From an uncultured virus (IMG/VR IMGVR_UViG_3300018421_000009) (Duplodnaviria; Heunggongvirae; Uroviricota; Caudoviricetes), in IMG/VR virus record IMGVR_UViG_3300018421_000009: a stretch of DNA of 64,000 bases; one strand, given 5' to 3'. The notes beneath the pieces were generated by a model. It searched no databases. It was not told the origin of the DNA and saw only the letters and a program-made list of their open reading frames with translations. Position 1 is the first letter of the stretch. Each line of letters opens with the position of its first letter. Both the position numbers and the translations under genes were made by a program. This document shows positions 3 through 64,000 of this stretch, piece by piece.

Positions 3-1262
3 GAGCAGTTACTTGGTATTACTATACTTTCTGAAAAAGCAGAACAGTTAAAAGTTAAGCAAAAAGAAGTTCGCGACGGTATTACTGAAGAAACTGCTCG
101 AATTAATGCTGTTCAATCAAGTAACGAGCGTATTAAAGAAACTATTGAAAGTTTAAAAGTAAAATCAAGTGCTTGGCGTCAACAAAATGCAAAAGATTGC
201 GAACGTTTGCAAAACGGAATTGACGAACTAGAACATTTAGATATTGATCAAGAACTTGAAGCACACGAGTTACTTTCTAAATGGGCAGAAAACGACAAGC
301 ATAAACGCAACTTAGAAAAAGAACGTGCTACACTAGAAAGTGCATTAAGTCAAACTGACAAACAAGTTGCAAAATATACAAAAGATTTAGAAAATCTTGT
401 TGATGCAAAGTGCCATAGTTGTGGTCAAGACTTACACGAAGAAAAGAAACTAGAAATTGAACTTAAACTTCAAGAAGAGTATGGCGAAACAATGACATAC
501 TTAATGGAGATTAATGAAAAGTTTGAAAAAGTGCAAACTAAACTTGAAGAACTAGGAGATCTAACTTCTAAACCTCTTACATTTTATGAAACTGCTAAAG
601 AAGCATACGATCATAGAAGCAATGTTGAAAATTTAAAACAAGCACTAAAATCAAAAGAAACAGAAAGCGACCCTTATGTTGACCAAATAACAGAATTAGA
701 AAACACTGCTATTCAAGAAGTACATTGGGAAACTGTTAACGAATTAAATTCTTTACTAGAACATCAAAATTTCTTGTATAAGTTACTTACAAACAAAGAT
801 AGTTTTATTCGTAAGAAAATTATTGAACAAAATCTTGCATATCTAAACAATAGACTTACATATTATTTAGATCGTATAGGATTACCACATCAAGTTGTAT
901 TCCAAAACGACTTGAATGTAGAAATTACACAATTAGGACAAGACTTAGACTTTGATAATTTGTCAAGAGGTGAACGTAACAGATTAATTTTAGGTTTAAG
1001 TTTTGCGTTCCGTGATGTTTGGGAAAGTTTATATCAAAATATCAACTTAATGTTTATTGACGAACTTATTGATAGCGGTATGGACACAGCAGGTGTTGAA
1101 AGTAGTCTTGCTATTCTTAAGAAAATGGGTCGTGAACGTAAAAAGAACATTTACTTAATTTCACACAAAGACGAACTTGTAGGTCGTGTTAATAACGTAT
1201 TAAAAGTTGTAAAAGAAAACGGCTTTACAAGTTATGCAAACGATATTGATATTATAGAATGA
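3..1262 (+). CDS. gp46: Recombination endonuclease subunit, T4 gp46/SbcC/Rad50-like ATPase (5' truncated by the window edge)
   Basis: Frame is open from position 3 (EQLLGITILSEKAE). Coiled coil with CHSC zinc hook, ABC signature LSRGE, Walker B LMFIDE and H-loop ISH. Confidence 0.92.
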   Translation, partial: EQLLGITILSEKAEQLKVKQKEVRDGITEETARINAVQSSNERIKETIESLKVKSSAWRQQNAKDCERLQNGIDELEHLDIDQELEAHELLSKWAENDKHKRNLEKERATLESALSQTDKQVAKYTKDLENLVDAKCHSCGQDLHEEKKLEIELKLQEEYGETMTYLMEINEKFEKVQTKLEELGDLTSKPLTFYETAKEAYDHRSNVENLKQALKSKETESDPYVDQITELENTAIQEVHWETVNELNSLLEHQNFLYKLLTNKDSFIRKKIIEQNLAYLNNRLTYYLDRIGLPHQVVFQNDLNVEITQLGQDLDFDNLSRGERNRLILGLSFAFRDVWESLYQNINLMFIDELIDSGMDTAGVESSLAILKKMGRERKKNIYLISHKDELVGRVNNVLKVVKENGFTSYANDIDIIE

Positions 1263-1480: not shown

Positions 1481-1492
1481 GTAAGTACCAGT

Positions 1493-1933
1493 ATGAACTG
1501 GACTTATCAAGGACAAGAGATAAACACAATACCTGAAGAATATGAAGGCTTTGTTTATCTAATCACAAATACAACCACTGGGCAAAAGTATATAGGCAAG
1601 AAATTAGCCAAATTTAAAACCACTAAGCCACCCCTTAAAGGCAAAAAGAACAAACGCAGAGGCACTAAAGAAAGCGACTGGCAGGACTATTGGGGTTCTT
1701 CTGATCGTTTACAAGCAGATGTCGAAGCACTAGGTCCAAAAAACTTCACAAGAGAAATACTTTATCTGTGTAAAAGCAGAGCAGAAATGAGTTACATTGA
1801 GGCTAGAGAGCAATTTGACCGCCGTGTATTAGAACGAGATGACTATTATAACGGAATTATTAATTGTAGAGTAGGCGGTTCAGACAAATTACGCAAGGCT
1901 TTATTGGAACAAGATATTAAGGCAAAGACATAG
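1493..1933 (+). CDS. Short GIY-YIG family endonuclease (Seg-like catalytic domain only)
   Basis: GFVYLITN...YIGKK motif, YWGSS, conserved E (YIEAREQF) and YYNGII; basic insertion KPPLKGKKNKRR. Confidence 0.85.
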   Translation: MNWTYQGQEINTIPEEYEGFVYLITNTTTGQKYIGKKLAKFKTTKPPLKGKKNKRRGTKESDWQDYWGSSDRLQADVEALGPKNFTREILYLCKSRAEMSYIEAREQFDRRVLERDDYYNGIINCRVGGSDKLRKALLEQDIKAKT

Positions 1934-2429
1934 TAACGCTGTTTGGTCGAGGATGCTCGACTCACCTTGAGGATATGTGAGAGACCATATTCAGATACTG
2001 GTGTGTTACAAGGATAATGCTAACTACAGGCATAAAAGATGTGTGCTCTGTGAAAAAGATACAACACACGGGTAAGTGATTTCGACTGTTTGGGATCAAC
2101 TGCCTTCCGCGGATATTGCGAATGCTGAAGTAGGGGGTTGACGGTCTGCCGCCTCCGATGTATTATATAGAATACATTAACACGTTTAATGCACTCTATA
2201 TGTTACAAATCTTCTTAAACAGAATGGCGATGCTAACTCACATGATGTGAAGCCAAACTTTTAATTCGTCCGGCAACGGGCGAATTGTGGCTCAACTATC
2301 TACATGATGCTAAATTGCTTCGCAATTATTGTTCTTAATTAAAAAGAAAATAAGTGTTTGAGCGATAGCGAAAACAAGATGTGCTTTAGCACATCTAAAC
2401 TGAATGCTTATCTATATAAGGATCATCCA
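1934..2429 (+). ncRNA. Candidate large structured ncRNA (or structured replication origin)
   Basis: ORF-free ~500 bp in an otherwise packed genome. Many stems: 1946-1961, 1971-1992, 2040-2070, 2159-2207, 2263-2286 (GCAA tetraloop), 2313-2327, 2377-2396. G-U pairs are mostly on the + strand. Confidence 0.6.
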
Positions 2430-2684: not shown

Positions 2685-3326
2685 ATGAAAATTACTCAAA
2701 TTGTAGCAGAATCGCGTGTAGATGAGGCTCCTGTAAGCGGTATTAGGCAGGGTCTACGTAAGTTTGGTGCTAAAGCACTGGCTAAAGTTGGCGCAAAAGA
2801 CGCCGCAATGGGTATTGCAGGTGCTGTAGATACCGGTGATGAAGCAAACGCACTGCGTACAGAGTTTCAAAATTATATAGGTCAAACAGGTCAAAAAATG
2901 AGCCAAATTGATGCACAAGATTTAGCAAATTGGCTTAAAACTAAAAAAATGCCTACTAATAGTGTTCCACCTAGCGGCACTGTAAGCAAGAAAATGCTTG
3001 ATCAAATCCTACTTAAGGCTGTACAAGATTCTAAAAAAGCCGGCGGAGTACCGTCCGCACAACCGGCCGCTGGCGCGGATGCTGGCGCATCACCACAAGC
3101 AACACAAGGTGCAGGACAACCTGACAATGCTAAACAAGGAACTACAGACACAGGTGCAGTAGACAAAGCAACTGCTACTGGTAGTTCAGGTGACGGTGCA
3201 GGCAAAGCACCTCCAACAGGCAACGGCAGTGCTGTTGGTAAATCAGAAACAATTCCGCCTAACATTCAAGCACAACTTGATTTGTTAAACGGTCCAGATA
3301 AAAAACGATTAGCGAGTATGTTATAA
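2685..3326 (+). CDS. Probable internal head/virion protein
   Basis: Late promoter upstream; N-terminus MKITQIVAE-SRVDE-AP has gp21-type (I/L/V)xE sites; Ala/Gly-rich linker. Confidence 0.55.
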   Translation: MKITQIVAESRVDEAPVSGIRQGLRKFGAKALAKVGAKDAAMGIAGAVDTGDEANALRTEFQNYIGQTGQKMSQIDAQDLANWLKTKKMPTNSVPPSGTVSKKMLDQILLKAVQDSKKAGGVPSAQPAAGADAGASPQATQGAGQPDNAKQGTTDTGAVDKATATGSSGDGAGKAPPTGNGSAVGKSETIPPNIQAQLDLLNGPDKKRLASML

Positions 3327-5674
3327 TGAAACTGTTTGAACTAAACACCCCAACGAATAGAACTAGTCAAATCCTAACTGAAGGTTATCAAACTCTTACA
3401 GAAACTCAAAAGATTTATCTTAATAGATGGGAACGTGAACTTTGGCCTTTGCTTGAAGAATACGTTAAACTCGCAGAAGCAGATCTAACTGCTGATCAAA
3501 TTAATGCTATTTTCCAAGGTGCTGAACAACGTGCAATGGCAAGTGGCGACAATAAAACTGTTGCAGGTAAAGTTGGTGGCGCGGCATTAGCGGCGGCAAA
3601 ACTTCCTGTAGACATTGCTAAAAAGGTTGATGCAAAGATTAATGAACTAGGACGCATGGCACAAAACGCAGGTCCTATTAAAAACGCTGATGCTAAGTTT
3701 GAAGAACTAAAAGCAAAAATTTCAAAAGAAAACAGTGACAGCAAAATTGTACAAGGCATTCAAAAAATTAGTGACTGGGCAAAAGAAAACCCAGGTAAGG
3801 CTTCACTAGCAGTAGGTATTCTAACAACTATTGCGGCTTTTGCGGGTGGTCCTGCAGGCGGTGCCGCGGCTGGTTTAATACTACGTGCTTCAAAAGACTT
3901 ATTACAAGGCGAGAAACTTTCAACAGCAGTTGGTAAATCAATTAAGACTGGTGTTTATGGTGCTCTTGCTGGTATGGCATTTAAAGAACTTACAGACAAC
4001 ATTGTTGACAACATTGCATCAGCACAGAACGCAGAACTAGATGCAATGGAAGCGGCCATGAAGGCAGAAAACTTCCAAAACGCAAAAGCAGATCTATTTG
4101 CTGATCTAGGCATGAAAGTTGATGCACTTGACGGTGCAAGTAGAATGAATATGAGTGGTAACTTAAATCAATTTTATTATTCATATGATACTGTTATTCC
4201 ACCTGATATGATGGGACAGTATAATGCTCTCGAAGCGGCTATGGACGGTGCGAAATCATTTAGTCCGGAGCATTATGCGGCGGCGGCTAAGTTCCATGAC
4301 TTTATGGGACAACTTGTAAACAGTTCTGAAGCAAAGAATCTAACAGCGGCTTGGGACGCACTTAAAGAAATTCCACGTGATACGCTTACAATAGACAACC
4401 TAAACACAATTATTGCTAAAATAGACTCAGGCGATGAATTGCTAAAAACAATTATGAACGCAGGCGGAGCGGCAGGAGCCGCGGCACAGGGTGCGTTACA
4501 AACTGTTGACGACAATGCTAAAAAAGCACAAACATCAAAACCAGTTGATGCAGATACTAAGCAACAATTAGAATTAGATCTTAAGGGTGGTGGTGAGAAA
4601 CAAGCAGAATCAATTGACTACGAAACTTCATACAAATATATGTTAGAGCAATATATTGCCGAAGCAGATCCTGCACAAGGTGAATTACCATTAGATAATC
4701 CAAACTCACTTGGTGCTAAGATGAAACGTGGTCTTGGCAAAGCGGCAGGTGCTGTTGGCGGTGCTATTAAAGGTGCGGCAGGCAAAGCGGCCGCAGGTGT
4801 TAAACAAGTTGGTAAAGACTTAGGTAACAAAATTACTGCTAACAAGTTAATGAAAAAATGGAAAGAAATGGGCGAACCAACAGACGCAGGTACTGTTGCA
4901 TTTATTCTACAAGACGCAGGTATGAGCCCAGACGATATTAAAGCAATTGGTCAAGAACAAAAAGTTGATCTACCAGCACAAGGTACTCCACCAGCAGATG
5001 CCAAAGGTGATAATGCACAAGCAGGTGCTACACCAGCAGATGCCAAAGGTGATAATGCACAAGCAGGTGCTACACCAAAAGCAGGTGGTTCTACAGCACA
5101 AGGTAGTCCAGATGCTTCACCTGAAGACAATCTTGCTAAAACAGGCAATCCAGTAGGAGCACCTAAAGATGGCGATTCTAACGCTGATACAGCGTCAACA
5201 AGCGGTGGTCAAGGTGGCGGTGCTACTGCAACAGCATCTTCAGGAGAAAGACGTGCTACTAAGGACGAAATTGCAAAATGGGTTAGAAAAGATGCCGGCT
5301 TAGTTGATCCTAAGAATCCTGCACTTGATGGTGCTATTGAAGCAAATAGAGATGGTCGCAATATTGGACTTGTTAGACAAGCAAATGGTCAGGATCATAT
5401 TTGGTTAGGCCAGTCGTGGGTTGATATGTCAACTGGCAAATCTGTAAGTTCTGATACACAAGGACTAGGCAGACCTGATCTAGAAGAACTTGCTAAAGAA
5501 ATTCAAAAAGCAAATGTTGCTAAACTTGTAAAAGATCAATTAACTTCACCTGGTGTAACAGCAGGTACTAAAGATGCTCAACAAGCAAAAGTGGGTAAAA
5601 AGTTAGTTTCTAAACAAGCACAAGCGGCAATGAAACGTCCAGAACAAAGATTCCAAAAAGGAGCAACTGCCTAA
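3326..5674 (+). CDS. Large probable internal head/ejection protein
   Basis: 782 aa, TAATG-coupled to the upstream gene. LTE/LAE/IAE motifs, hydrophobic Gly/Ala segment LAVGILTTIAAFAGGPAGGAAAGLIL, low-complexity linker. Confidence 0.55.
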   Translation: MKLFELNTPTNRTSQILTEGYQTLTETQKIYLNRWERELWPLLEEYVKLAEADLTADQINAIFQGAEQRAMASGDNKTVAGKVGGAALAAAKLPVDIAKKVDAKINELGRMAQNAGPIKNADAKFEELKAKISKENSDSKIVQGIQKISDWAKENPGKASLAVGILTTIAAFAGGPAGGAAAGLILRASKDLLQGEKLSTAVGKSIKTGVYGALAGMAFKELTDNIVDNIASAQNAELDAMEAAMKAENFQNAKADLFADLGMKVDALDGASRMNMSGNLNQFYYSYDTVIPPDMMGQYNALEAAMDGAKSFSPEHYAAAAKFHDFMGQLVNSSEAKNLTAAWDALKEIPRDTLTIDNLNTIIAKIDSGDELLKTIMNAGGAAGAAAQGALQTVDDNAKKAQTSKPVDADTKQQLELDLKGGGEKQAESIDYETSYKYMLEQYIAEADPAQGELPLDNPNSLGAKMKRGLGKAAGAVGGAIKGAAGKAAAGVKQVGKDLGNKITANKLMKKWKEMGEPTDAGTVAFILQDAGMSPDDIKAIGQEQKVDLPAQGTPPADAKGDNAQAGATPADAKGDNAQAGATPKAGGSTAQGSPDASPEDNLAKTGNPVGAPKDGDSNADTASTSGGQGGGATATASSGERRATKDEIAKWVRKDAGLVDPKNPALDGAIEANRDGRNIGLVRQANGQDHIWLGQSWVDMSTGKSVSSDTQGLGRPDLEELAKEIQKANVAKLVKDQLTSPGVTAGTKDAQQAKVGKKLVSKQAQAAMKRPEQRFQKGATA
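4989..5077 (+). repeat. Perfect 42-bp in-frame tandem duplication (PADAKGDNAQAGAT x2)
   Basis: caccagcagatgccaaaggtgataatgcacaagcaggtgcta at 4989-5030 and 5031-5072, then cacca. Confidence 0.95.
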
Positions 5675-5907
5675 AAGAAAGGCATATTGCTCTTTTTAGT
5701 TGTTTCTAGATTATCTTCAACAATCTTACTAACTATTTCTCGTTCTTCGGGACCAAAGTCGTATGCTTCAGTAATTGATACTCCGCCTCGCATATACCAC
5801 ACTATCTTTAACAAGTCGTGTTTTATCTGTTTGCATTCTTTTTCCATTTCTTTAGAACGCTGGATAATCTTGTCAAGAGGCCAGTGTGTTATCTGCGAGC
5901 GAAAAAA
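5671..5907 (-). CDS. gp51-like / tail-chaperone C-terminal ORF, probably reached by -1 frameshift from the upstream gene (missing from the ORF track)
   Basis: Manual translation: FFRSQITHWPLDKIIQRSKEMEKECKQIKHDLLKIVWYMRGGVSITEAYDFGPEEREIVSKIVEDNLETTKKSNMPFF*. First ATG (5847) has no SD. Confidence 0.75.
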   Translation of the reverse strand, partial: FFRSQITHWPLDKIIQRSKEMEKECKQIKHDLLKIVWYMRGGVSITEAYDFGPEEREIVSKIVEDNLETTKKSNMPFF

Positions 5908-6821
5908 TTTGATTGATCAAACGTAATAGGCACTTCAAATTTTAATGGTGCGCCTGCTTCTCGTTCCTCAACTGTTGTTTCCGTTTCAAACGGAGGTAGT
6001 GCAAAATCACTTCTAACTTTTTCAATATGATCTTTGATTCTTTCAAAAATAATACTGTCTGCGTTAGCAAAAAAGTCTTTGATGTGTTTTGGATCTGTTA
6101 CTGGTTCGTCATGTCCATATTGTACATAAACAACTTGATCTACAACAATATTAAGATTCATTTCTGATAACAGTTTAAATGAAGCATCAAACTTCGACAT
6201 TTTTTCTGAATCAGTCATCTTAGAATCTTGAATGGACGCAACAACACGAGATTGTTCCATACTCTTGATAGACATTTCAGTAAATGTTTTATACGAAATA
6301 GGTCTTAGTTTAAATGTAAAACCTTCTGTAGTAAACGTTTCTGGAAACTTTCGTTCTACAATAGTATCTAATAATTGTACTAGATTAATATCAAAATCTT
6401 TTTCAATTTCGGTATTTGGAACTTTTGATGTAATAGCCATTGTTTCACCGTAAGTAGCAATACGAATTGCAATAAGAATTGCATCAAGATCGATACTTGG
6501 ACAATGAAAAGCATTTTTAATGTTTGGTATACAACTTTGCATTAAAGTTGCTGTTGCTTGGCCATTTATTAGTGCATCTGGAGTTTTTAGGACTAATTCG
6601 TCCTTGGCAGTCATTGAATAAACTGGTAACTCACCATTTTCAGGCATATCAATTGATCCTTCTGGCCACCATTTACCACCAGATGGCAACCTTAGATAGA
6701 TCTTTGCCTGTCTAAAGTGTTTTGCCAATGGGTTGGCGCCGGCTGGTTGAATAGGTGTTCCACCCTGTGGATTCATACCTATTGTATTGTTATAACCTCC
6801 GGACATAGTATTATCTGCCAT
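5889..6821 (-). CDS. T4 gp26-like baseplate hub / tail assembly chaperone (start MADNT at 6821)
   Basis: YLRLPSGG..W, MTAKDEL, DLDAILIAIRIATYGE and C-terminal NFF; GGAG SD and TATAAATA upstream; divergent from the tape measure gene. Confidence 0.75.
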   Translation of the reverse strand: MADNTMSGGYNNTIGMNPQGGTPIQPAGANPLAKHFRQAKIYLRLPSGGKWWPEGSIDMPENGELPVYSMTAKDELVLKTPDALINGQATATLMQSCIPNIKNAFHCPSIDLDAILIAIRIATYGETMAITSKVPNTEIEKDFDINLVQLLDTIVERKFPETFTTEGFTFKLRPISYKTFTEMSIKSMEQSRVVASIQDSKMTDSEKMSKFDASFKLLSEMNLNIVVDQVVYVQYGHDEPVTDPKHIKDFFANADSIIFERIKDHIEKVRSDFALPPFETETTVEEREAGAPLKFEVPITFDQSNFFARR

Positions 6822-6836
6822 GTTTTCTTCTCCTGC

Positions 6837-6863
6837 TAAATAATAGTAGCACAAGTATTTATA
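6837..6863. promoter_or_regulatory. Face-to-face late promoters: TAAATA (+, 6837-6842) and TATAAATA (-, 6856-6863)
   Basis: Seen directly between the divergent gp26-like and tape measure genes. Confidence 0.7.
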
Positions 6864-17254: not shown

Positions 17255-17349
17255 GTCAGATAGTGTGCCGCATAATGTGGCGGACTTATGCTGTTACCCA
17301 CAGCGTACCGGATAGAACCCGGATAGGACTACTTTATAGGAGAAAACAA
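17255..17349 (+). promoter_or_regulatory. Structured 5' leader of a late structural gene
   Basis: Three consecutive hairpins (17266-17282, 17287-17307, 17308-17322) between TAAATA (17244) and SD ataggag. Confidence 0.55.
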
Positions 17350-17802
17350 ATGGGAAGACCACTAAACAAAAGATACTTCGGCGAACCAACTGCTGGAGGC
17401 AATGAAATTAAAGTTAACTTCAACGACGGTTCATCTGTTGTAGAAGGTCACATTGTAAAACAAAAAGGTTCAAAGCGTTTTGTTGTTGCGCCTTTAGGTG
17501 CTTCGGACACTGAATATACTTGCGTTCTTACTACTGGTAAATTACCAGCGGCATTAGCGGCAGGCGAAATGGCTATTTCAGTTAAAGGTGACGACGGCGA
17601 AACTTACGGTGTAAGCAAAATTGCAGGACATAAAGTTACTGTAGTTGCTCCAAGTGCAACTGGTTCAAACGCATTAGACGGAACATCAATTGCTTGGAAT
17701 TATAGTACTTCGGCTGTTGACGGTGCAGTACAAGTTGAAGAGGCTGGTGAAACAGACGACGCGGCTTCAGTTACTGATGACGATTTCACAGACGACGCAT
17801 AA
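17350..17802 (+). CDS. Virion structural protein (start MGRPLNK at 17350)
   Basis: Strong SD; own late promoter and terminator; IVKQKGSKRF motif. Confidence 0.7.
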   Translation: MGRPLNKRYFGEPTAGGNEIKVNFNDGSSVVEGHIVKQKGSKRFVVAPLGASDTEYTCVLTTGKLPAALAAGEMAISVKGDDGETYGVSKIAGHKVTVVAPSATGSNALDGTSIAWNYSTSAVDGAVQVEEAGETDDAASVTDDDFTDDA

Positions 17803-55400: not shown

Positions 55401-58400
55401 TACAATGTTACTATTGCCGACACTGGTCAAGATTATCAAATAGGTGACAACATTGTAATTAGCGGTGGTCAAGTTGGCGGAGCAGACGGAATAAATGATA
55501 TACGTATTATTATTGAAACTGTTGATACTGGAGGCGAAGTTTTAACATTCACTTTCTCAGGTGACGGCTTTGATGGCAACGGAACATTCTTTACACAGAG
55601 CGGAGAATTACAAGGCGGTACAGGTACTGGTGGTAATTTTGATGTTACATATACAAACAATGTATACACAGCAACAATTTCATCTCCAGATACATCCTCT
55701 GGTTACACAATCGGTGACGTATTAAGAATTGACGGTTTCGAACTAGGTGGTACTTCTGTAACTAACGATCTTACAATGACAGTTGACGCCATTGGTGTTG
55801 GTGGATCTATTACTAGTGTTGTAAGTTCAGGTACAGCAGTTGACGCAGATGTTTCTTATCCTTCGCCGACACGTACATCAAATACAGTTGCAGGTGTTGA
55901 TGCAGACTTTAACATTCAACGAATTGGAACTTCGTATTTTGTTACTATAACAAATGGCGGTTCAGGTTATTTGGCCGCTGAGACATTTACAGTACTTGGC
56001 TCAGAATTAGGTGGTACCGATGGTATTAACAATGCTACTGTTACTATTACATCAGTTGGTGTAAGTGGTGATATTACTGGCGCTTCAGTTGCTGGTACTG
56101 CGGCTAACACCAAAGCATATCCGGTAATCACTACAGCACAACGAGTTGTTGGTAATGGAGCAGAATTTACAGTTGATTTGGCAAACGGGACATATACATT
56201 AACATTAGAGTCAGCAGGACAAAACTATGGCGTTGACCAAGAACTTATTATTAGAGGTACAAATCTTGGAGGTGCAAGTCCTACTAATGACGTAACTATT
56301 ACAGTTACAGCAGTACAAGCCGACGGCGGAATTACTACATATACATTTGCTGGCACAGGTGCAACAGGTAGTGGAAGTTATAATGCAGTCATTGGACAAA
56401 ATGACTCTAACGCAGGATCTAATGCAGTATTTGACATAACACGAAGTGGTGGAAACTATACATTAGTGATAGCAACTGATGAAGGTAGTGGATATAAAGT
56501 AGGTGATAGAATTATTATCCCTGGAGACGAACTTGGAGGCGCAACACCTACAAACGATTTAACATTGCGTTGTACACTTGAGTCAACTGAAGGAAATTTT
56601 GTTGGTATTAGTGCTAGTGGTACAGCAGTTTCAGGCGACACTTTAGACCTTTATAGTTCTGTAACAATGTCAGAAGAAACTACTTCAACTATTGCACAGT
56701 CAACTGTTATTACGTACAGTGCATTAGCAAGTATTAGAATTACATTTAATACACCACACGGACTTGTTCCTGGTGATTCGTTTGCTGTTACAGTAGGATC
56801 AGACGACGGATCAAATAACCATGCACTTGCGGCTGGACCTTTTAGTGCAACAGCAGTTCCGAGTTTAACAACTTTAGAATATCAATGTAGATCGCCAGGC
56901 TTTATTGATACTGGTACAAACAACGATACTCCTATCATTGGTAACGTTTATCCAAGACCAGATTCGTTCTTTATTCACAGACCATATGACGGTGGTGTAC
57001 AGTTAGGAACGGGAGGACCGCAACACGGTGCTCAGGCAATTCGTCAGAGTAAAAAATACATTCGTTACCAATCAGGTAAGGGTATTATGTATACCACTGG
57101 TGCTCTATTTGCACCAAGTTACAATATTCTTAATATTACCTCTGACGGTACAGTTCCCGGTTCTACTATTACTGTTACTACAGATGAAACAGAACACGGT
57201 TTACAAGTTGGCGGTATAATTAAAATTATTGGTGTTGACACATTAGGATACAATGGAACATATACTGTTACAGATGTTAATGACGAAAACGAATTTGAAG
57301 TACTTGCACACACTACACTAGGATCAACTAATCCAGAACTAAGTTCAGAGTGTCAAGTATCATTAAGCAAGTTCCATGGTGCAACTGTGCGTTCAGGCGC
57401 ATTTGATGATCAAAATGGTATCTTCTTTGAATATGATGGTACACAATTTAGTGCTGTACAAAGAACTGCTACATTGCAGTTAGCAGGTGTTGTGGATATC
57501 GAAGTAGATGCAAACACTGTTACAGGTAGTGGAACAAGATTTAGAGAACAATTAAAAGCAGGCGACAGAATTGTGCTTAAAGGTATGACACACGTTGTAA
57601 CAAATGTTGTTAATAATACTACTATGTATGTTGCACCTGACTTCCGTGGTGTTACAGATGTTAGAGCAAGTAAGATTTGTTTGGTTAGAGACAAGAAAAC
57701 AGAACAAAAGAACTTTAACAAAGACCGAGGTGACGGTACTGGACCAAGCGGATACAACATTGACATCAGTAAGATGCAGATGGTTGGTATTCAGTATTCA
57801 TGGTATGGTGCTGGTTTTATTGACTATATGCTACGTGGTTCAAATGGTGAGTTTGTATTCATGCACAGAATGAGAAACTCAAACGTAAACACAGAAGCAT
57901 TTATGCGTACAGGTAATATGCCGGTGCGTTATGAAATTACCAATGAAGGACCAAGTGGCAAACTATCACAAGATATGGATGATTCACAGCAATTTATTCC
58001 ATTGCAAGAGGCTAGTTTCTTCCCACCAGATGGTGGCGTTGTTTACATTGATGGTGAAATGATTAGATTTACTGGTATAAGTGGTAAAAACTTAACTGGT
58101 TGTACTAGAGCCGCAACAATGACTAACTTTGCATCAGGTGCTACAAGAACATATTCCGGTGGTGGAGCAGAAGCACATACAAGAAACACAGGAGTTGTGT
58201 TAATTAGTAACACTGCTTCTCCAAATATTTCACACTGGGGTTCTGCATTTATTACAGATGGTGGTTTTGACAGTGATAGAGGATACTTATTCTCATACAA
58301 ATCAACCGGAGTTCAAGTTACTACAACAAGAACAACATCATTCTTGCTTAGACTAGCGCCATCAGTGTCCAACGCACTAGTTGGAGACTTAGGTGAACGT

Positions 58401-59435
58401 GAACTTCTAAACAGAGCACAGTTACTACTTGAAGGTCTTGAGATTACAACAGACCAACCTACAACAGGGGACACGGGCGGTATTGTTATTGAAGGTATTT
58501 TGAATCCACAGAACTATCCACTTAACCCATCAGACGTTGGTTGGCAGGGGCTATCAGGACTTGCACAAGGTGGACAGCCAAGTTTTGCACAGGTAGCACC
58601 AGGTGGTTCTACTAACTGGAACTCAGGTGACATTCCGACTACTGCTGACGTTACTACCCAAGCACCAATTACTGCAAGTATCACAGGTGTTGATAGAGGA
58701 TATAGAAGCAATAACGATTACTGGGATAATGCTGTAAGAACAGGAAGAAACTTCTTCTGGATTCAAGAGTCATTTTATTCTGCTAACACAGATTTATTCC
58801 AAACTGGTATTGAAATTGATTCTCCAACATACTTCCCTGCAGGAACTACTATTACACAGATTGGTTCATGGACAACTTCTTCTGCTTCTTCTGGAACAAT
58901 TAGACCAATCTATCTAAGTTCAAATGGGTTACAAAACGTTACTAGTGGAAATGTTAACTTAACATTTAAGAGAACATTTAAAGATGCACCTACTAACAAC
59001 ATCTTCTTTAATAAGACTAGTTTTGAAAATGCTGGTGTAGCACAAGGTACAAACGTAAGTGACACTAGATTCCCAGCAGGAACACAGGTAACGTCATTAA
59101 CTTTAGAAAGTTATAACAGTACTGAATATTACAGTGTTGTGTTTAACCAAACTTCAGACAACAGTGCTATTACTGCAGGTACTACAACTATTGAATTTGA
59201 ATTTGTGCAACCACCGTTTGCTCAACCAGGTGAAACAATCTTCTCATTCATTGCACAACCTGGAGAGCGTTCAACACTAGACTTGTCGTTCATTAAAGAA
59301 TTGACCAACACTACACTAGGTGGTAGAGGTACATTCCCGAACGGGCCAGACGTACTAGCAATTAACGTGTATAAGACGTCAGGCGCGGGTATTACCAGTA
59401 ATATTGTACTACGTTGGTCGGAAGCACAGGCTTAA
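52449..59435 (+). CDS. Giant virion structural protein (2328 aa)
   Basis: KCERD helical repeats, duplicated YTP.TG.M.IT.G.H..LTFTC..DN domain, about 5 G..Y..GD.I.I.G..LGG....ND repeats, DADFEYGLQPTKW, YSWYGAG lectin-like region. Confidence 0.75.
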   Translation: MAKRKINDYIFHQGIPYSENLMPNAYWLIQNNVEFIVDEVREWINYKILNANSYTPTDVVYTPGTGVMVITIGTHNIIPGDAIRIATNGLTFTCARDNNASTHSYPRATGVPNSTGHDPSYDTPVEVLATTSTTITVNVGISSDSTVHTFVGALPNAITDNFDGYVNDSDDKCERDMRYNLIGGDEYNTVTDQPGGLLHDIRYGGNEQARYLASKYWDRAIPQIDGDRWPEKAAKAFARLLINDYILTNTAFPSRQSVTTQTINSEYIAESGAGDQVTKVLVDTIGKVIVEGTSFMPDLEHAKISRCLFPTKVTQDNLLLITNTTNNNVLFNFSDPSKGASTKYVYDSVEFTPTYEYFSKFLETTDTITQVLFDVDTRNNEYLPNSRSLIANNKEFLKDEVRAWIADNVANASAFTPTNVVYTPLTGVMVITLGAGHGLDTGDYIRIAPNSLTFTCAMDNHATEHNYPRASGSNAPGGRDYAYDSALPILAADATTVTVNVGVSTNKSEHIFVEADTNSVYDIWYNYTYNSAKCERDTGFNLDAIALDLQYGGNTNVRDTASKYWVGPTPQIDGSRVQEIKAKEFLRDLINNFILPKSVWPTKQTGTPETTQYFGNGVAELGTGARITELIGIITTVIENGLGFLPTEEQSTIWSENDTLSIFVDQGDLKTRPYDFGTDAIERHRVANALSMLDADFEYGLQPTKWQAIGTMRGYPSTYEVPGTDTAVQDVVTDASDGSSGVGQSLITVTTVGPHGVEPGQPITIRGLDGAVQGNGRAEGTFIVNTAPTNNTFTYYAKAKVGTVAGTSLVTFYTILRQAAFYTGADIQGDTPSYEVTTQGSAGSFSLALGSASGQDRLAIQGNPPELGAPLVSTSGGIPLGSQVTGSVGAGGIITTPTTTSDTPQGSFTIDVENASAVEIGSAVDRGDATAAFVTQVVGNTLTIDTATTRELIGNNVTYTGLTGANDSSIGNGATFDVTRTTGVYNVTIADTGQDYQIGDNIVISGGQVGGADGINDIRIIIETVDTGGEVLTFTFSGDGFDGNGTFFTQSGELQGGTGTGGNFDVTYTNNVYTATISSPDTSSGYTIGDVLRIDGFELGGTSVTNDLTMTVDAIGVGGSITSVVSSGTAVDADVSYPSPTRTSNTVAGVDADFNIQRIGTSYFVTITNGGSGYLAAETFTVLGSELGGTDGINNATVTITSVGVSGDITGASVAGTAANTKAYPVITTAQRVVGNGAEFTVDLANGTYTLTLESAGQNYGVDQELIIRGTNLGGASPTNDVTITVTAVQADGGITTYTFAGTGATGSGSYNAVIGQNDSNAGSNAVFDITRSGGNYTLVIATDEGSGYKVGDRIIIPGDELGGATPTNDLTLRCTLESTEGNFVGISASGTAVSGDTLDLYSSVTMSEETTSTIAQSTVITYSALASIRITFNTPHGLVPGDSFAVTVGSDDGSNNHALAAGPFSATAVPSLTTLEYQCRSPGFIDTGTNNDTPIIGNVYPRPDSFFIHRPYDGGVQLGTGGPQHGAQAIRQSKKYIRYQSGKGIMYTTGALFAPSYNILNITSDGTVPGSTITVTTDETEHGLQVGGIIKIIGVDTLGYNGTYTVTDVNDENEFEVLAHTTLGSTNPELSSECQVSLSKFHGATVRSGAFDDQNGIFFEYDGTQFSAVQRTATLQLAGVVDIEVDANTVTGSGTRFREQLKAGDRIVLKGMTHVVTNVVNNTTMYVAPDFRGVTDVRASKICLVRDKKTEQKNFNKDRGDGTGPSGYNIDISKMQMVGIQYSWYGAGFIDYMLRGSNGEFVFMHRMRNSNVNTEAFMRTGNMPVRYEITNEGPSGKLSQDMDDSQQFIPLQEASFFPPDGGVVYIDGEMIRFTGISGKNLTGCTRAATMTNFASGATRTYSGGGAEAHTRNTGVVLISNTASPNISHWGSAFITDGGFDSDRGYLFSYKSTGVQVTTTRTTSFLLRLAPSVSNALVGDLGERELLNRAQLLLEGLEITTDQPTTGDTGGIVIEGILNPQNYPLNPSDVGWQGLSGLAQGGQPSFAQVAPGGSTNWNSGDIPTTADVTTQAPITASITGVDRGYRSNNDYWDNAVRTGRNFFWIQESFYSANTDLFQTGIEIDSPTYFPAGTTITQIGSWTTSSASSGTIRPIYLSSNGLQNVTSGNVNLTFKRTFKDAPTNNIFFNKTSFENAGVAQGTNVSDTRFPAGTQVTSLTLESYNSTEYYSVVFNQTSDNSAITAGTTTIEFEFVQPPFAQPGETIFSFIAQPGERSTLDLSFIKELTNTTLGGRGTFPNGPDVLAINVYKTSGAGITSNIVLRWSEAQA

Positions 59436-59836
59436 TCTAAAGTCGGCGGGGGATTATTTTTCTTTATAACGTCTTTTTGACTGTCACCTGGTATAATGCG
59501 GTAGTTATCTTCAACACTATCAGGTGTACTTACTTCACTAATAGAACTATTAGGCTCTAATGCTATAAGTTGGTGTGGTTGTAATGGAGGATTATGCCAA
59601 GTGTCGCCAGGAGCAAGTTCTTTTGTATATAAAACAGCATCTTTTGTATCAATCCATTTAACTTCAAAGCGTCCACTGTTAACAAACCACGTTTCGTCCT
59701 TCTCTTTATGAAAATGCATGGAAAATTTTGAGCCTGCTTTTTCAAATACCATAATTTTACCACAGTACTTGTCGTTGGTTGCCCAGATTAACTCGTAACC
59801 CCAGCCTTTTTCTACTTTACCTTCAAGTCGACTCAT
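59432..59836 (-). CDS. Cupin (sugar-phosphate isomerase-like)
   Basis: KGWG.E, SMHFH..KDETW, H.L, EVST. Confidence 0.8.
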   Translation of the reverse strand: MSRLEGKVEKGWGYELIWATNDKYCGKIMVFEKAGSKFSMHFHKEKDETWFVNSGRFEVKWIDTKDAVLYTKELAPGDTWHNPPLQPHQLIALEPNSSISEVSTPDSVEDNYRIIPGDSQKDVIKKNNPPPTLD

Positions 59837-60540
59837 TTTTTACTCCATTTATCTCTAAATTTTTTATATGCACCTCGAAATTTACTTTGAAATATCATAT
59901 TACTGATAAAACTTGCTTCATATTTTTCTTTATCTTCGTCTTGTACCGAAAAATTCATGTCTGCAAGTTTAATTGGCACATACATTGCTAAAGGTGTACC
60001 TTTTTCTATCAAAAATTCACCTTCTTTTTTAATTAGTAGTTGTTGATTAACCTGATGGCTCCATTCGGTATGTGTTACACCAGGCATACACTCAAAAATT
60101 TCATTAAAATCATAAAACATTGGTAATTGCATCATTGCCCAACCTGGACTTGTGCGTACACGCCAAGGGCAATCTGTTTTTGCAACACATAAAAACTGAT
60201 TTTTTACATTTTCTGGTAAATGATTTCTAAATTGCTCACCATAATGTAAACTCATGGTAAAATCTTCATTACTTGAATGCCATGCAAAGTTATCTTTATC
60301 AACTTTTATGTGAAAATCACACCACATAGTAACTACATAGGCATTTTTAAAATAATCTACAAAGCCAGGACAATTTTTTAGTGTACCTTTGTCAGTGTAA
60401 TTGTCCTCTTGTAAAAATTGAGGCATATTTTTAAACCAGTTAGGTAAAAATTTAGTGGCTGGTTGTATTGGTTCTACTTTTGATAACCCCGGAACTACAC
60501 TCCACCACTCAACTTTACAATTATTTTTATTTTGACTCAT
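59833..60540 (-). CDS. Hypothetical protein
   Basis: 235 aa; P.WFK, T.K.CPG..D, PW...T.PG, I.KGTPL; overlaps both neighbours. Confidence 0.7.
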   Translation of the reverse strand: MSQNKNNCKVEWWSVVPGLSKVEPIQPATKFLPNWFKNMPQFLQEDNYTDKGTLKNCPGFVDYFKNAYVVTMWCDFHIKVDKDNFAWHSSNEDFTMSLHYGEQFRNHLPENVKNQFLCVAKTDCPWRVRTSPGWAMMQLPMFYDFNEIFECMPGVTHTEWSHQVNQQLLIKKEGEFLIEKGTPLAMYVPIKLADMNFSVQDEDKEKYEASFISNMIFQSKFRGAYKKFRDKWSKK

Positions 60541-61351
60541 GTATCCATTCTTCCGGTCTGATAAAGGAATGATCGATGTGTGATAGAGTATTTTTCATAT
60601 CAGCACAAGTGTATTCTTGATATTGACCACGTAAATTCTCAGGCATAGGAATTTGTACAATTTTTGCATTGTATTTTTTAGCCACTGCTTCAGCAATACT
60701 CTTAAAAGAACGTGCTACACCAGTGCCTACGTTAAAAATACCACTTTCATCAACCTCTAACATCTTTTCGTGAATTAAGCAAACGTCTTGTACGCTAATG
60801 AAGTCACGAAGATAGTTTTCACTGTTTTCAAAAAGTAAAATTTCGCCTGTTTCTTTGGCTTGTTTTGTAAATTTAGTTACTGGACTGGCTTGATTAGCCT
60901 TGTGACCTTCACCGTGACCGTAAACATTAAAATATCTAAATCCCTGGATGCTGATTTTAAAATCGTTTTTAAATTCGTTAATCCATCTATCGATCAAATA
61001 CTTGCTCCAAGCATACGGACTCTGAGGGAAACATTTTGAATCCTCACAAAATCCGTCATAACCAGGACCGTATACACTTGCTGAACTAGCATATTGTATG
61101 CTGGTACCCATCATATCACAGATTTCAATTAGTTTCATTGTAAATTCATAGTTTTGCTTTAATACTTTTTCTACATCATGTTCAGTAGTACTTGAAATAG
61201 CACCTAAATGGATAACACGATCGTATAATGAAGCATCCGGGTACTTGTTTTCTTGCCATTCCCAACCTTCTACATCGTGCCCTTTATACTTTAGGTATGA
61301 AGCAAGATTACTTCCAATAAAACCTTTGTTTCCTGTTACTAAAATTTTCAT
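60527..61351 (-). CDS. hldD: ADP-L-glycero-D-manno-heptose 6-epimerase
   Basis: VTG..GFIGS, HLGAISSTTE, YASSASVYG, YAWSK, RYFNVYG..E.HK, RDFI, YQEYT.AD. Confidence 0.88.
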   Translation of the reverse strand: MKILVTGNKGFIGSNLASYLKYKGHDVEGWEWQENKYPDASLYDRVIHLGAISSTTEHDVEKVLKQNYEFTMKLIEICDMMGTSIQYASSASVYGPGYDGFCEDSKCFPQSPYAWSKYLIDRWINEFKNDFKISIQGFRYFNVYGHGEGHKANQASPVTKFTKQAKETGEILLFENSENYLRDFISVQDVCLIHEKMLEVDESGIFNVGTGVARSFKSIAEAVAKKYNAKIVQIPMPENLRGQYQEYTCADMKNTLSHIDHSFIRPEEWIHESK

Positions 61352-62598
61352 TCTTTTATTTTCTCTATAATGCTTGTTGTCGAACTACCTTCAACTGTTG
61401 GAAAAATTTCAACAGGATACAGTTCATGACCGACAACTGTTTCAATTGTATAATCTCCGCCTTTAATAATCAAGTCCGGATTTACTCGTTTTAGTGTTTC
61501 GAGTGGCGTGTCTTCGTCAAATATAATAACTTCATCAACCCATGGTAACAACTCGAGGTTGATTTTACGTTGCAGTTGATTATTAATAGGACGGTTTTCA
61601 CCTTTTAGTCGTTTTGTACTGTTATCACTGTTAATACCAACAATTAATTTTTTACCTTTTGACTTGGCAAATTTTAATAGTTGAAAATGTCCTTCATGTA
61701 ATAGGTCAAATACTCCATTAGTCCAAACAACTTTAGGTTTCAAATCATCTTTTGTTATTACTGCAACACCTCTATGTTCAACAGTGCGTGCCGCGGCATA
61801 GCAAGCCATTTGACAACTATCAAAAATTGACATTCCTTGCTCTAACCCATAAGCAATAACAGCAAGAACAGTATCACCTGCACCGGTAACATCTGCAACT
61901 TCGTGTACAGGTTCTTGAAAATGTTTATATTTTAAATCATCAGCCAAAACATGAATACCTCGAGGACCATCTGTTACTACAAAGTACTTCCACCCGTATT
62001 CTTTCATTTTTAAAAGTGCAGTTTCTTTTTTAAATTCGCCAAACCAATCCTTATACTCTTTCATGTTAGGTTTAACAAGATATGCACCTTTATAAAACTC
62101 GGGTGTTTGTTTGGGATCAACTAAAACTTTCTCAGTTTTTCTTAAAATATTACTAATTGTGTCTTTTTGAATAGTTCCTTTATTGTAATCACTAACACAA
62201 ACAATATCACTGCTAGTTAATGAACTGTTAAGTTTTTCAAAAGCACCAAATCCGTTATATTTTTCTTCTCTGTCCCATCTTAAAATATGCTGTCCACCCT
62301 GACCAACTAGTCTTGTTTTTGTTGTAGTTGGATAATTTTCTACTGATGTGTTAACTTCTAAATTAGTATCTTTTAAAAGTTCTAAAATTTTGTATCCTTC
62401 TTTGTCAGCACCAATAAAACCATATAAGCCTACTTCTCCGTTTATAGAAGAAATGTTTAATGCTAGATTTCCAGCACCACCGATACTGTATTTTTGTTCT
62501 GTTTCTCGTAAAACTGGAATAGGGGCTTCAGGACTTACTCTATCTGCTACTCCGTGAATCCAGCGATCTAACATAATATCGCCAAAAACTTTAATCAT
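61348..62598 (-). CDS. hldE: Bifunctional heptose-7-phosphate kinase / heptose-1-phosphate nucleotidyltransferase
   Basis: GDIMLD...G...RVSPEAPIPV, GGAGN, SDYNKG, DVTGAGD (PfkB) fused to TNGVFDLLH.GH, GINSD, KGGDY, STT. Confidence 0.93.
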   Translation of the reverse strand: MIKVFGDIMLDRWIHGVADRVSPEAPIPVLRETEQKYSIGGAGNLALNISSINGEVGLYGFIGADKEGYKILELLKDTNLEVNTSVENYPTTTKTRLVGQGGQHILRWDREEKYNGFGAFEKLNSSLTSSDIVCVSDYNKGTIQKDTISNILRKTEKVLVDPKQTPEFYKGAYLVKPNMKEYKDWFGEFKKETALLKMKEYGWKYFVVTDGPRGIHVLADDLKYKHFQEPVHEVADVTGAGDTVLAVIAYGLEQGMSIFDSCQMACYAAARTVEHRGVAVITKDDLKPKVVWTNGVFDLLHEGHFQLLKFAKSKGKKLIVGINSDNSTKRLKGENRPINNQLQRKINLELLPWVDEVIIFDEDTPLETLKRVNPDLIIKGGDYTIETVVGHELYPVEIFPTVEGSSTTSIIEKIKE

Positions 62599-62599
62599 A

Positions 62600-63040
62600 T
62601 TAATTCTCTAACAAATCAATTAAATCAAAGACTGTTTTTAATTTGGTTTGGTTTGTTTTGTTTTGAAGGGTATTGCGTAATCCTTGATGCAATGGTTTAG
62701 GCCATTTATTAAATGATGCCCAAGCATAACCGTCGTGTTCTTTATTTAGACTAGGAAGAAACTCTTGTTTAACAACCACCAAATAGGTATGAAAGTTAAA
62801 CTGCTCATCTGTGCTTACAAAAGTTTCTAAAGGTATTGTTTTAAGGATTTTTGGAGTATCACCAACTTCTTCTTTGATTTCTCTTTTAAGAGCAACAATA
62901 GGAGTTTCGTCAGCCGTACCAGTACCGCCTACAAGGCCCCAAACATTATTTTGTTTGCTTTGAGTCCTGTGTAAGAATAAGAATCTTTTGGTATCTAGTG
63001 CATAAAATAATGCACCACTGCACGAAATCTTCTGGCTCAT
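62600..63040 (-). CDS. NUDIX hydrolase
   Basis: WGLVGG.....ET...ALKREIKEEVG Nudix box. Confidence 0.88.
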   Translation of the reverse strand: MSQKISCSGALFYALDTKRFLFLHRTQSKQNNVWGLVGGTGTADETPIVALKREIKEEVGDTPKILKTIPLETFVSTDEQFNFHTYLVVVKQEFLPSLNKEHDGYAWASFNKWPKPLHQGLRNTLQNKTNQTKLKTVFDLIDLLEN

Positions 63041-63052
63041 ACTAATAATTAG

Positions 63053-64000
63053 TTAGAATTCTATGCGCCAAGTTCCGTTTCGATATTCGCCTTCAAAAGA
63101 AAGTACCCATTCACTGCCAGTCCATTTATACTGAACTCCGGTGTTTAGATTAGTAGTGTATTTGATTGTGGTTTCTGTACTTGCATCAAACAAGATAACC
63201 CATTTTGCACCATCCCATTCAATAATGTCATTTTCACTTGCAATAAAGTCTGTATTGTCATTGTTTTTCCAAGCAGTAGGACCACTAGCATTACTAGGAT
63301 CACCAATACTATCTAACAATAATATTCTTATTCCTGCTTGTTTAACACTTGCTGGGTTCCATGTTTTAGGATCAATAATATAATCAATTTTATTTCTATC
63401 ACCTGTGCTACCTGTAATAACAGTGTCGCTTGGAATAGTATCTTGGTCCCAAGTAATTGCAAGTTTAGTAGGATCATTTGGATTAATAGCAACAGCGCCA
63501 TTAATACTACTTGATAAATCTGATCTAGTTAATTGTAGTTGACTTAACCCTGGTCTAAATTGTCCAGGCATCGAGTCAATAAATTGTGACCATAGTGTGG
63601 AACCTACAACACCTCTGTAAATTAACTGTGCCTCATTTCCTAATACTAATAGTTCGTAATCTTGGTAAGCACTAATAGCAATACTTGAAGCATCTTTCTT
63701 AGTAGATTCGGTTCTATTATCAGAAAGTGTATCTGCTTGTGTGACCTGCTCATCATAACTATCAGCGTAGCGTTTGTATTCAGGTGTTGCCTCGCCTAGA
63801 TCAATAGTACCGTCTTCTTCGTTAAAAATACTCATAATAACACTTGTAATGACACCTAACTTTTTAACCTTAGCAGGAGGAGAAATCCAAATGGGTGTTT
63901 TAAATGTTAGTGTGCCTACGTCAATTTCACTTTCTGTACCCATCGGAATACTTCTGCCACTCCAATTAACACTTTCTAAATCTACAACACTTAAACTAGT
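63053..64000 (-). CDS. Tail sheath stabiliser/terminator (T4 gp15-like) with C-terminal extension, 5' truncated
   Basis: Frame is open to the window end (TSLSVVDLESVNWSGRSIPMGTESEID.TLTFKTPIWISPP); assignment rests on motif resemblance only. Confidence 0.55.
   Translation of the reverse strand, partial: TSLSVVDLESVNWSGRSIPMGTESEIDVGTLTFKTPIWISPPAKVKKLGVITSVIMSIFNEEDGTIDLGEATPEYKRYADSYDEQVTQADTLSDNRTESTKKDASSIAISAYQDYELLVLGNEAQLIYRGVVGSTLWSQFIDSMPGQFRPGLSQLQLTRSDLSSSINGAVAINPNDPTKLAITWDQDTIPSDTVITGSTGDRNKIDYIIDPKTWNPASVKQAGIRILLLDSIGDPSNASGPTAWKNNDNTDFIASENDIIEWDGAKWVILFDASTETTIKYTTNLNTGVQYKWTGSEWVLSFEGEYRNGTWRIEF

Follow-up and report, generated by a model that had tools for sequence, protein, structure and literature searches.

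A large structured RNA with a covarying direct repeat next to a GIY-YIG nuclease gene of a jumbo phage: a candidate origin RNA

The locus and its structured RNA

We analyzed a 64,000-nucleotide (nt) stretch of an uncultured Caudoviricetes virus (IMG/VR record IMGVR_UViG_3300018421_000009; the entire stretch is referred to as the window), in which a gene for a 146-amino-acid (aa) GIY-YIG nuclease (1493..1933, + strand) is followed directly by a large, structured, covarying RNA, here denoted type A (1933..2309, + strand; its ends are set by conservation). This RNA is real and largely undescribed, and it does not need the GIY-YIG gene. The initial annotation, made from the letters alone, had proposed that nuclease and RNA form a dedicated ribonucleoprotein, possibly RNA-guided or primer-processing. 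Every string on which that proposal drew, including the open reading frame (ORF) at 1493-1933 and all the listed stems, is present where it had been placed. So is the promoter-like word TAAGTA (1482..1487, + strand), a putative promoter that lies 5 nt 5' of the nuclease start and recurs within 14 nt of that start in 22 of the 34 distinct upstream sequences. A consensus scan of positions 1200-2750 gave no terminator on the + strand, in agreement with the claim that none separates gene and RNA, and the region behind the nuclease is ORF-free overall, as had been stated, except for one minus-strand frame of 45 codons with a TTG start.

Compared with 100 dinucleotide shuffles, the segment 1930-2430 has a more stable fold on both the + strand (z -4.21) and the - strand (z -4.51), so that the strand cannot be assigned from folding alone; in three of the helices, G-U substitutions favor the + strand. 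With a 21-nt motif of the window as the query, at least 120 viral loci were recovered; 112 sequences containing both the motif and the direct repeat described below were reduced to 63 by removal of near-duplicates, and 54 of these were aligned by sequence alone, the other 9 being kept out because of long inserts or other 5' domains. The search motif itself is invariant by construction, and the covariation and permutation statistics reported here ignore relatedness. In the 54 relatives, to which all pairing values below refer, the consensus structure comprises 69 pairs, with 86.9% of the cells paired and two-sided changes at 55 of the pairs, compared with 38-49% of the cells paired in a control in which the structure was slid by 1-3 columns. 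The strongest covarying columns are either base pairs of this structure or identities between both copies of the repeat, and two pseudoknot crossings are supported by covariation. Thus, the large pseudoknot-capable RNA that had been read from a single sequence is borne out by its relatives.

The 5' domain of the RNA (1933..2009, + strand), which is swapped for Polynucleobacter-1 (RF01718) in some relatives, consists of a closing helix (1933-1939/2003-2009, 75% paired), a hairpin (1946-1961, 77%) and a helix at 1964-1966/2000-2002 (88%). The following helix (2041..2069, + strand; 91% paired) holds the top two covarying pairs and a conserved module that we take to be T-loop-like, the invariance of its core being partly a product of the search pattern. 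Next comes a hairpin (2071..2104, + strand; 86% paired), the loop of which (2086-2091) forms pseudoknot 1 with 2217-2222, as had been predicted, with about 79% of the cells paired and two-sided changes at all 6 pairs. In the core (2109..2214, + strand), pseudoknot 2 arises from the crossing of helix 2109-2114/2144-2149 (99.7% paired) with 2127-2130/2211-2214 (94%) and 2133-2137/2152-2156 (100%). The AT-rich hairpin at 2158..2208 (+ strand) is an optional, variable insertion, the respective segment measuring at least 47 nt in 6 of the 54 relatives and at most 19 nt in 47; the 22-bp hairpin (2159-2207) of the initial annotation is therefore real but is not a guide, being self-paired and short or absent in most relatives. 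The terminal GC-rich hairpin with a GCAA loop (2263..2286, + strand; 2264-2285 is 87% paired) lies between the repeat copies, and covariation was also detected between 2113/2114 and 2285/2282. Among the helices proposed at the outset, those at 1946-1961, 2041-2069, 2071-2104, 2133-2156 and 2264-2285 stand, but ccttg/caagg (1965/2009; 56% of the cells paired) and the alternative partner of aaacag at 1939-1944 (55% paired) are unsupported; ggatatg/catattc reaches 68% in a poorly aligned region. The helices 1933-1939/2003-2009, 2109-2114/2144-2149 and 2127-2130/2211-2214, as well as the covarying direct repeat, had been overlooked.

The direct repeat is located in the 3' part of the RNA, where ACATGATG flanks the last hairpin, at 2240 after CTC and at 2302 after TCT. 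Copy 1 (2237..2247, + strand) consists of the anchor CT, one extra C, which forms a bulge between the 2-nt anchor and the repeat, and the 7-8-nt repeat itself (2240-2247); in copy 2 (2300..2309, + strand), the template strand of which is the proposed DNA target, CT is followed directly by the repeat (2302-2309). In a test anchored on the hairpin alone (121 loci examined; 4 were too short, 5 had no anchor and 30 duplicates were removed), the two copies share at least 6 nt in all 82 distinct type A loci (permutation mean 38.9, maximum 53) and at least 7 nt in 74 of these (mean 21.9, maximum 33). There are 29 different hexamers among these loci (the repeat of L083 is imperfect), and the repeat sequence changed approximately 18 times on the tree; it shows a preferred consensus, and the spacing of the copies varies from 49 to 67 nt. 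A partner strand for the 7-mer in the form of a 7/7 complement within the RNA is missing in 51 of 63 loci, and the complements in the other 12 have no common position. Identity of the copies, with no complement inside the RNA, would be expected if copy 1 of the transcript hybridized to the template strand of the DNA at copy 2. The 7-mer is guide-like, yet it matches its own locus only.

The AGGC...CATAGT word that overlaps the end of the nuclease gene (1919..1934, + strand) may serve the RNA as a promoter, or as an activator site, of its own; WAGGCH is present in 40 of 66 upstream windows vs. 17% of background windows. In genome G002, the DNA directly 5' of the RNA (C1 275560-275690) contains tandem repeats in which WAGGCH occurs seven times, the densest cluster of that genome. 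On the other side, there are three short hairpins (2313..2396), one of which has a C(GAA)G loop when read on the minus strand; they may act as signals in single-stranded DNA or as a bidirectional terminator. In metatranscriptomes (4 runs), contigs of depth 2-8 span the gene and the RNA (1469-2237 in X1; 1810-2049, free of mismatches, in X2); these contigs are unstranded and could include DNA carry-over, and are not counted as proof of a discrete RNA.

A search of Rfam gave no match to the RNA of the window at the gathering score or at E<10, and none to 11 loci of type A and the related type B. Hepatitis delta virus-like, hammerhead, group I/II, RNase P, glmS and box C/D RNAs were dropped by eye against consensus structures, in agreement with Rfam. 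No account of the whole RNA or of its repeat was found in the literature searched; published catalogues of viral candidate RNAs lay outside that search, and fragments may be listed there.

Genomic setting and types of the RNA

Judging from its gene content, the window belongs to a T4-like jumbo phage of the RaK2/PA5oct-like group. Nuclease and RNA lie in a conserved slot that is marked by a gene for a gp46/SbcC-like recombination nuclease subunit (3..1262, + strand; phrog_77, E 1.8e-46; the 5' end is beyond the window) and bordered on the other side by the gene for a gp26-like baseplate hub (5889..6854, - strand; PF12322). The latter is a marker of the RaK2/PA5oct/Atu_ph07-like group, and its closest cultured relatives (24-31% identity) are found in Atu_ph07, PA5oct, Phosso and RaK2-like enterobacterial phages. 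Between the RNA and the gp26 operon are two big Ala/Gly-rich ORFs (2685-5674, + strand; 213 and 782 aa) without a Pfam match, the larger of which contains a repeated 14-residue unit; TTGACA and CATAAATA words (2643-2654) precede them. Elsewhere in the window, a freshwater-2 RNA (RF02980) is present at 17266-17352 (+ strand, 78.7 bits), and both GC and AT skew go negative past about 58 kb (approximately 58000-64000), probably owing to a switch of the coding strand.

Relatives of the RNA fall into several types. The type A profile matches type C (E ~1e-18) and the 5' domain of type D (E 2e-7), and weakly type B (E 0.13); types B and C retain the repeat module, and L059 and L077 are hybrids that combine a type A-like 5' domain with a type B core. 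Type D, which shares the 5' domain of the window, comes from 80 loci collected via a PD-(D/E)XK protein; among the 56 distinct loci with enough sequence, a type A-like repeat was called in 16 (that of L248 is probably spurious) and none in 40, most of which are type D. The type A repeat detector found no repeat in about 40 type D loci, and a plain longest-match test is weak (14 of 37 at 6 nt vs. 9.4); under a bulged model chosen after inspection, the anchor dinucleotide is identical in both copies in 31 of 32 loci (permutation 10.4).

Type E is found in the 680-800-bp slot gap of the phages BF, XbC2, Munch and XaC1, in the same slot and the same orientation. It has its own -10 word and combines a GC hairpin at the terminus with a repeat that is bulged in the same way and covaries in 18 of 19 cases (permutation 5.2; the sole miss was traced to a wrongly picked site). 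It was detected in 62 of 50,697 phage records and is carried by cultured E. coli phages, one of which was isolated on K-12 MG1655. There are five copies each in BF, XbC2 and Munch and four in 121Q, all 19 on one strand and more evenly spaced than under random placement (p 0.002, 0.001, 0.002 and 0.027, respectively, for genomes that are related to each other); the one paralogue checked has no nuclease neighbor. A type E element also occurs in E. coli EEC_W5 (L355 4753-15303), within an integrase-bearing island at the ffs gene that is present in 2 of 5,426 E. coli genomes; the island may be a satellite that makes use of an origin taken from a phage.

Phage PA5oct contains three related elements, and a paralogue of its slot element is the noncoding RNA ncRNA004 (82.5% over 126 nt, E 2e-30). 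This RNA is defined by RNA-seq and is highest early, at 0.08, 0.03 and 0.02% of phage reads (PMC7318152, Table 1). Its annotated 3' end coincides with the last base of a repeated hexamer behind the terminal hairpin. About a third of some members of the RNA is, by sequence match, already catalogued as Polynucleobacter-1, which corresponds to the first 140 nt of L023, L259, L116 and L109 at scores above the cut-off; neither the core nor the repeat module is part of this motif, and the RNA of the window, with its different 5' domain, does not match it. In a table of PMC2864571, Polynucleobacter-1 is entered as a possible cis-regulatory RNA. A second element of G002 (C1 165725-166080, + strand) joins a Polynucleobacter-1-like 5' part (below the cut-off) to a B-like core and a different repeat. 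In each of the two G002 elements the repeat is matched locally, which fits base pairing better than recognition by one protein.

Further searches delimit the distribution of the RNA. In blastn comparisons, it gave one chance match among cultured phages and none among plasmids; the 3'-hairpin pattern was not found in prokaryote genomes, and neither was the T-loop word of PA5oct in viral contigs. The T-loop pattern detected 8 loci in prokaryote genomes: 2 appear to be phage contigs within genome bins, a partial core is present in 1-2 (L354 and L353), and the rest are chance-like. In L354 (1480-1600, Pseudomonas sp. BBP2017) and L353, the type A T-loop helix and the next hairpin lie in bacterial contigs (E 8e-11 and 1e-8), without a match among plasmids. 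In phage Phosso (L318 2487-3500), a 1,014-bp gene-free gap containing a long palindrome and short hairpins extends from the resolvase gene to the RNase HI gene; the repeat module was not recognized there.

A candidate origin RNA and the alternatives

We favor, at somewhat better than even confidence, the hypothesis that the RNA is a cis-acting origin (pre-primer) or R-loop RNA of RaK2/PA5oct-like jumbo phages, which works like the RNA II of ColE1 yet stands outside that family. RNA-DNA pairing, R-loop formation and priming are inferred here, as are the resolvase activity of the nuclease and the kinship of type E. Under this hypothesis, the RNA would be transcribed from the + strand, either from its own promoter or by read-through, and would fold into a double-pseudoknot scaffold that exposes the 7-8-nt copy 1 with its 2-nt anchor and bulge. 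During the passage of RNA polymerase over copy 2, which lies 50-65 nt downstream, copy 1 would pair there with the template DNA strand, tethering the transcript to the DNA and seeding a persistent R-loop, like the G stretch of ColE1 RNA II. The 3' end of the RNA might then be processed to a primer, or else the displaced strand with its short hairpins might load helicase and primase; the GIY-YIG protein would be the product of a separate core gene, probably a branch-cutting resolvase.

The parallel with the RNA II of ColE1 and of the MRB plasmid involves a long folded RNA with its own promoter, in which an upstream RNA segment equals a downstream DNA segment and pairs with the template; origins of the ColE1 type need no initiator protein. 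In ColE1, an rG stretch of the RNA pairs with a dC stretch of the template and is essential for the R-loop (PMC4412123). The sizes of RNA II of ColE1 (550 nt; PMC5043065) and of the MRB plasmid (~465 nt; PMC3035462) are similar to that of the window RNA. The window displays this pattern, with an RNA segment identical to downstream non-template DNA that could presumably pair with the template. Neither Rfam nor the plasmid search revealed homology to ColE1 RNA II or RNA I, and there are further differences: the repeat of the window is a mixed-sequence, freely changing, bulged 7-mer instead of a G tract, the fold is a double pseudoknot, the hosts of the element are 300-kb phages, and there are up to five copies. 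Several transcription-primed origins in one phage genome are familiar from T4, where oriF and oriG consist of a promoter followed by an AT-leaning stretch (PMC4412123); in contrast to the RNA of the window, these are described as a promoter plus an unwinding element, without a folded RNA or covarying repeat. Promoter words are present in G003, PA5oct and type E.

Several lines of evidence support the origin hypothesis. Covariation of the repeat is seen in three sequence types (A, D and E), and type E has a -10 word of its own. The lack of a consistent internal complement, the locally matched, differing repeats of G002 and the early ncRNA004 of PA5oct, with its 3' end at a repeated hexamer, point the same way. 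Hairpins of the C(GNA)G/C(GNNA)G kind occur 3' of copy 2 in 44 of 53 loci, at 1.11 per 160 nt vs. 0.12 in shuffles; in DNA, a C(GNA)G loop confers particular stability. The copies of type E are co-oriented and evenly spaced in BF, XbC2, Munch and 121Q, and the Phosso gap beside the resolvase points into the RNase HI gene.

Other observations weigh against it. The complete genome G003 has one copy, on the minority strand and without a skew inflection, and the GC skew of two large genomes gives no clear origin signal. The DNA 3' of copy 2 is barely AT-richer than the upstream gene (GC 0.351 vs. 0.377; lower in 33 of 52), the short hairpins form no genome-wide cluster when searched for with 4-bp stems, and the Phosso gap folds at z -1.9 only. 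RNase H of the PF00075 family is present in 0 of 5 phage records, RaK2 has no type E match, and SCTP-2 and Atu_ph07 have no slot gap. An antisense RNA like RNA I of ColE1 was not found in a search that consisted of a promoter scan, with no minus-strand sigma-70 word in 1200-2750, and ColE1 RNA II manages with a less ornate fold. The type A profile matches neither type E nor PA5oct nor Phosso, so that slot and architecture are the basis for regarding them as kin. Taken alone, the three PA5oct repeats are non-significant (p 0.60, 0.55 and 0.11), and the slot copy of PA5oct is absent from the four noncoding RNAs of PMC7318152.

One rival is a free-standing, ornate, trans-acting RNA, a scaffold or regulator akin to GOLLD and ROOL, in which the repeats are tandem sites where a protein of the phage binds RNA or DNA. 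GOLLD and ROOL are likewise large, pseudoknotted and phage-borne, but the RNA of the window is smaller, carries a covarying direct repeat and matches no such family model in Rfam. The presence of several copies per genome with their own promoters, the discrete RNA of PA5oct, the modular 5' domains and the preferred consensus of the repeat all speak for such a role. A protein site, however, would hardly account for exact copy-to-copy identity over 29 different hexamers, for two elements with different repeats in one genome, or for covariation of a bulge-offset dinucleotide at a variable spacing of 49-67 nt; even spacing and co-orientation of the copies, and the low abundance of ncRNA004 in PA5oct (PMC7318152), also argue against it. 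We consider this explanation unlikely.

Another possibility, which strikes us as distinctly improbable, is that the fold is a ribozyme in which copy 1 serves as a guide and positions the bulge at the cleavage site in DNA (or RNA), producing a nick or the primer end of the RNA itself. Ribozymes of the HYER type cut DNA using a 6-nt guide. The double-pseudoknot core with invariant unpaired bases, the conserved bulge beside the guide in three types and the lack of a phage RNase H in the five records examined would be accommodated by catalysis; however, host RNase H could serve, no ribozyme in Rfam matches, and types A, B, D and E have cores of such divergent sequence that a shared active site would not be expected. 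A joint version, which we regard as quite unlikely, would make the element a self-aiming origin ribozyme: a bulged 7-nt guide would capture the template strand 60 bp downstream, the pseudoknotted core would make the primer end or nick the DNA, and jumbo phages would fire several evenly spaced origins. Types A-E, Polynucleobacter-1 and PA5oct ncRNA004 would then constitute one modular class, which small chromosomal islands borrow for phage copying.

The GIY-YIG nuclease and the significance of the locus

The GIY-YIG protein is a SegE-type nuclease, as indicated by a score above the cut-off for PF19835 (SegE_GIY-YIG; E 1.3e-34, 119.6 bits), the catalytic motif and an I-TevI-like fold. Across 42 sequences, Y22, Y33, G35, E103 and N120 are invariant, and the best 120 database matches, in a search of 80-256-aa proteins, are 81-93% identical. 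The alignment-based model (predicted local distance difference test score, pLDDT, 90.5; the single-sequence fold is poor, at pLDDT 48) shows a single domain, with residues 40-60, a basic stretch (1610..1672, + strand), modeled as a beta-hairpin extension (strands E40-45 and E55-60). The top structural match of the model is the catalytic domain of I-TevI (Z 7.8, root-mean-square deviation 2.7, 82 residues aligned); a sequence search of solved structures gave no match, and Foldseek none at E<0.001. The GIY-YIG fold includes branch-cutting enzymes such as Slx1, but the scores of the model against Slx1 (Z 3.0) and HIGLE (Z 3.7) are low, which does not speak for or against a resolvase. The features of a GIY-YIG homing endonuclease are lacking in that the protein has no appended DNA-binding domain and is encoded by a single copy in a fixed slot. 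Long GIY-YIG forms (314-367 aa) near the RNA in L125, L137 and L157, that of L137 adjoining a PD-(D/E)XK gene, possibly are true homing endonucleases. Both phrog_447 and many GenBank records name this GIY-YIG family 'NAD synthetase', apparently an annotation error.

The association of this gene with the RNA is not obligate. In 80 type A loci, the GIY-YIG gene is adjacent to the RNA in 41, separated from it by another gene in 9 and inverted in 2; a PD-(D/E)XK gene (PDDEXK_15) is found instead in 18 (2 inverted, 1 separated), neither nuclease lies within 1.5 kb in 9, and the flank is too short in 1 (L137 has both), so that GIY-YIG is replaced or absent in 27 of the 80. G003, a complete 328-kb genome, holds the RNA with a sigma-70-like promoter word ahead of it, an inverted PD-(D/E)XK gene and no PF19835. 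Among 35 large records, which were chosen by hand, 11 being located via the GIY-YIG gene and the majority incomplete, PF19835 is present in 26, PF24608 in 6 and both in none. Conversely, the 80 GIY-YIG genes most similar to that of the window (84-100% identity) are followed by the window's RNA type in 6 cases, by type B in 69 and by type C in 5, and cultured homologues leave no room for the RNA, with gaps of 28 bp behind the gene in phiM12 and 148 bp in Melnitz (50% and 66% identity). Many contigs among L001-L080 stop no more than 300 nt past the nuclease gene, inside the RNA, probably because of assembly breaks at shared sequence.

A dedicated, possibly RNA-guided complex of the GIY-YIG protein with the RNA is therefore unsupported, and we rate it as very unlikely. 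It could appeal to the 41 loci with direct adjacency, to the RNA contigs that bridge the nuclease stop codon, to the basic beta-hairpin of the protein model and to the fact that some resolvase-slot nuclease stays near the RNA even if inverted. Yet three unrelated nuclease folds occupy the slot, a complete genome holds the RNA but no GIY-YIG, near-identical proteins stand beside differing RNA types, homologues lack the RNA altogether, and paralogous RNAs have no nuclease neighbors. The 'primer-processing' remark of the initial annotation comes close to the origin hypothesis, but its tie to the nuclease is unsupported. The likeness to HEARO/OMEGA (IscB/TnpB) loci, namely a nuclease gene beside a large structured RNA in which a short segment close to the 3' end resembles a guide, is offset by a nuclease that is neither obligately linked nor of the HNH/RuvC type, by the lack of mobile-element ends, by a target copy in cis, 60 bp away, and by the absence of a match in Rfam. 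A template of the telomerase kind or that of defense-associated reverse transcriptases (DRT), from which a polymerase would copy RNA copy 2 toward copy 1, jump back and make tandem repeats, is hardly credible: the large scaffold is indeed followed by a 50-60-nt stretch that resembles a template and lies between two identical short segments, but RVT_1 was found in 0 of 5 records, including one complete genome (a remote reverse transcriptase could escape), and the 3' module is not arrayed in tandem in G002, in G003 or in the window.

The GIY-YIG protein is fairly probably the branch-cutting nuclease, a predicted resolvase, of its clade, with the RNA as its neighbor by synteny. In other RaK2/PA5oct-like jumbo phages, the slot beside gp46 is occupied by a PD-(D/E)XK nuclease or endonuclease VII, often inverted. 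Among cultured relatives, an annotated RusA-like resolvase fills it in PA5oct and Phosso, and endonuclease VII in BF, RaK2 and XaC1. In G004, a weak, inverted endonuclease VII match (E 2e-5, below the cut-off) adjoins the RNA. Because these enzymes fill the same slot, GIY-YIG probably is a branch-cutting resolvase as well. The comparison is thus with resolvases such as T4 endonuclease VII (gp49), RusA and Hjc, as relatives of the phage carry endonuclease VII or RusA-like genes in the same gp46/gp47 slot; the nearest solved fold remains the catalytic domain of I-TevI, with Slx1 far weaker. For this very common phage protein, which the databases label 'NAD synthetase', comparison of the slot suggests a function in resolving DNA branches.

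No account of replication initiation in RaK2/PA5oct-like jumbo phages turned up in the literature searched. If the structured RNA is indeed an origin RNA, RNA-primed initiation, a mechanism associated chiefly with small plasmids, would also operate in 300-kb viruses, which abound in marine and fresh waters. Furthermore, the orphan Rfam motif Polynucleobacter-1 and the orphan RNA of PA5oct would acquire a job, and the element would represent a natural RNA that locates its DNA site via a short, freely changing guide.

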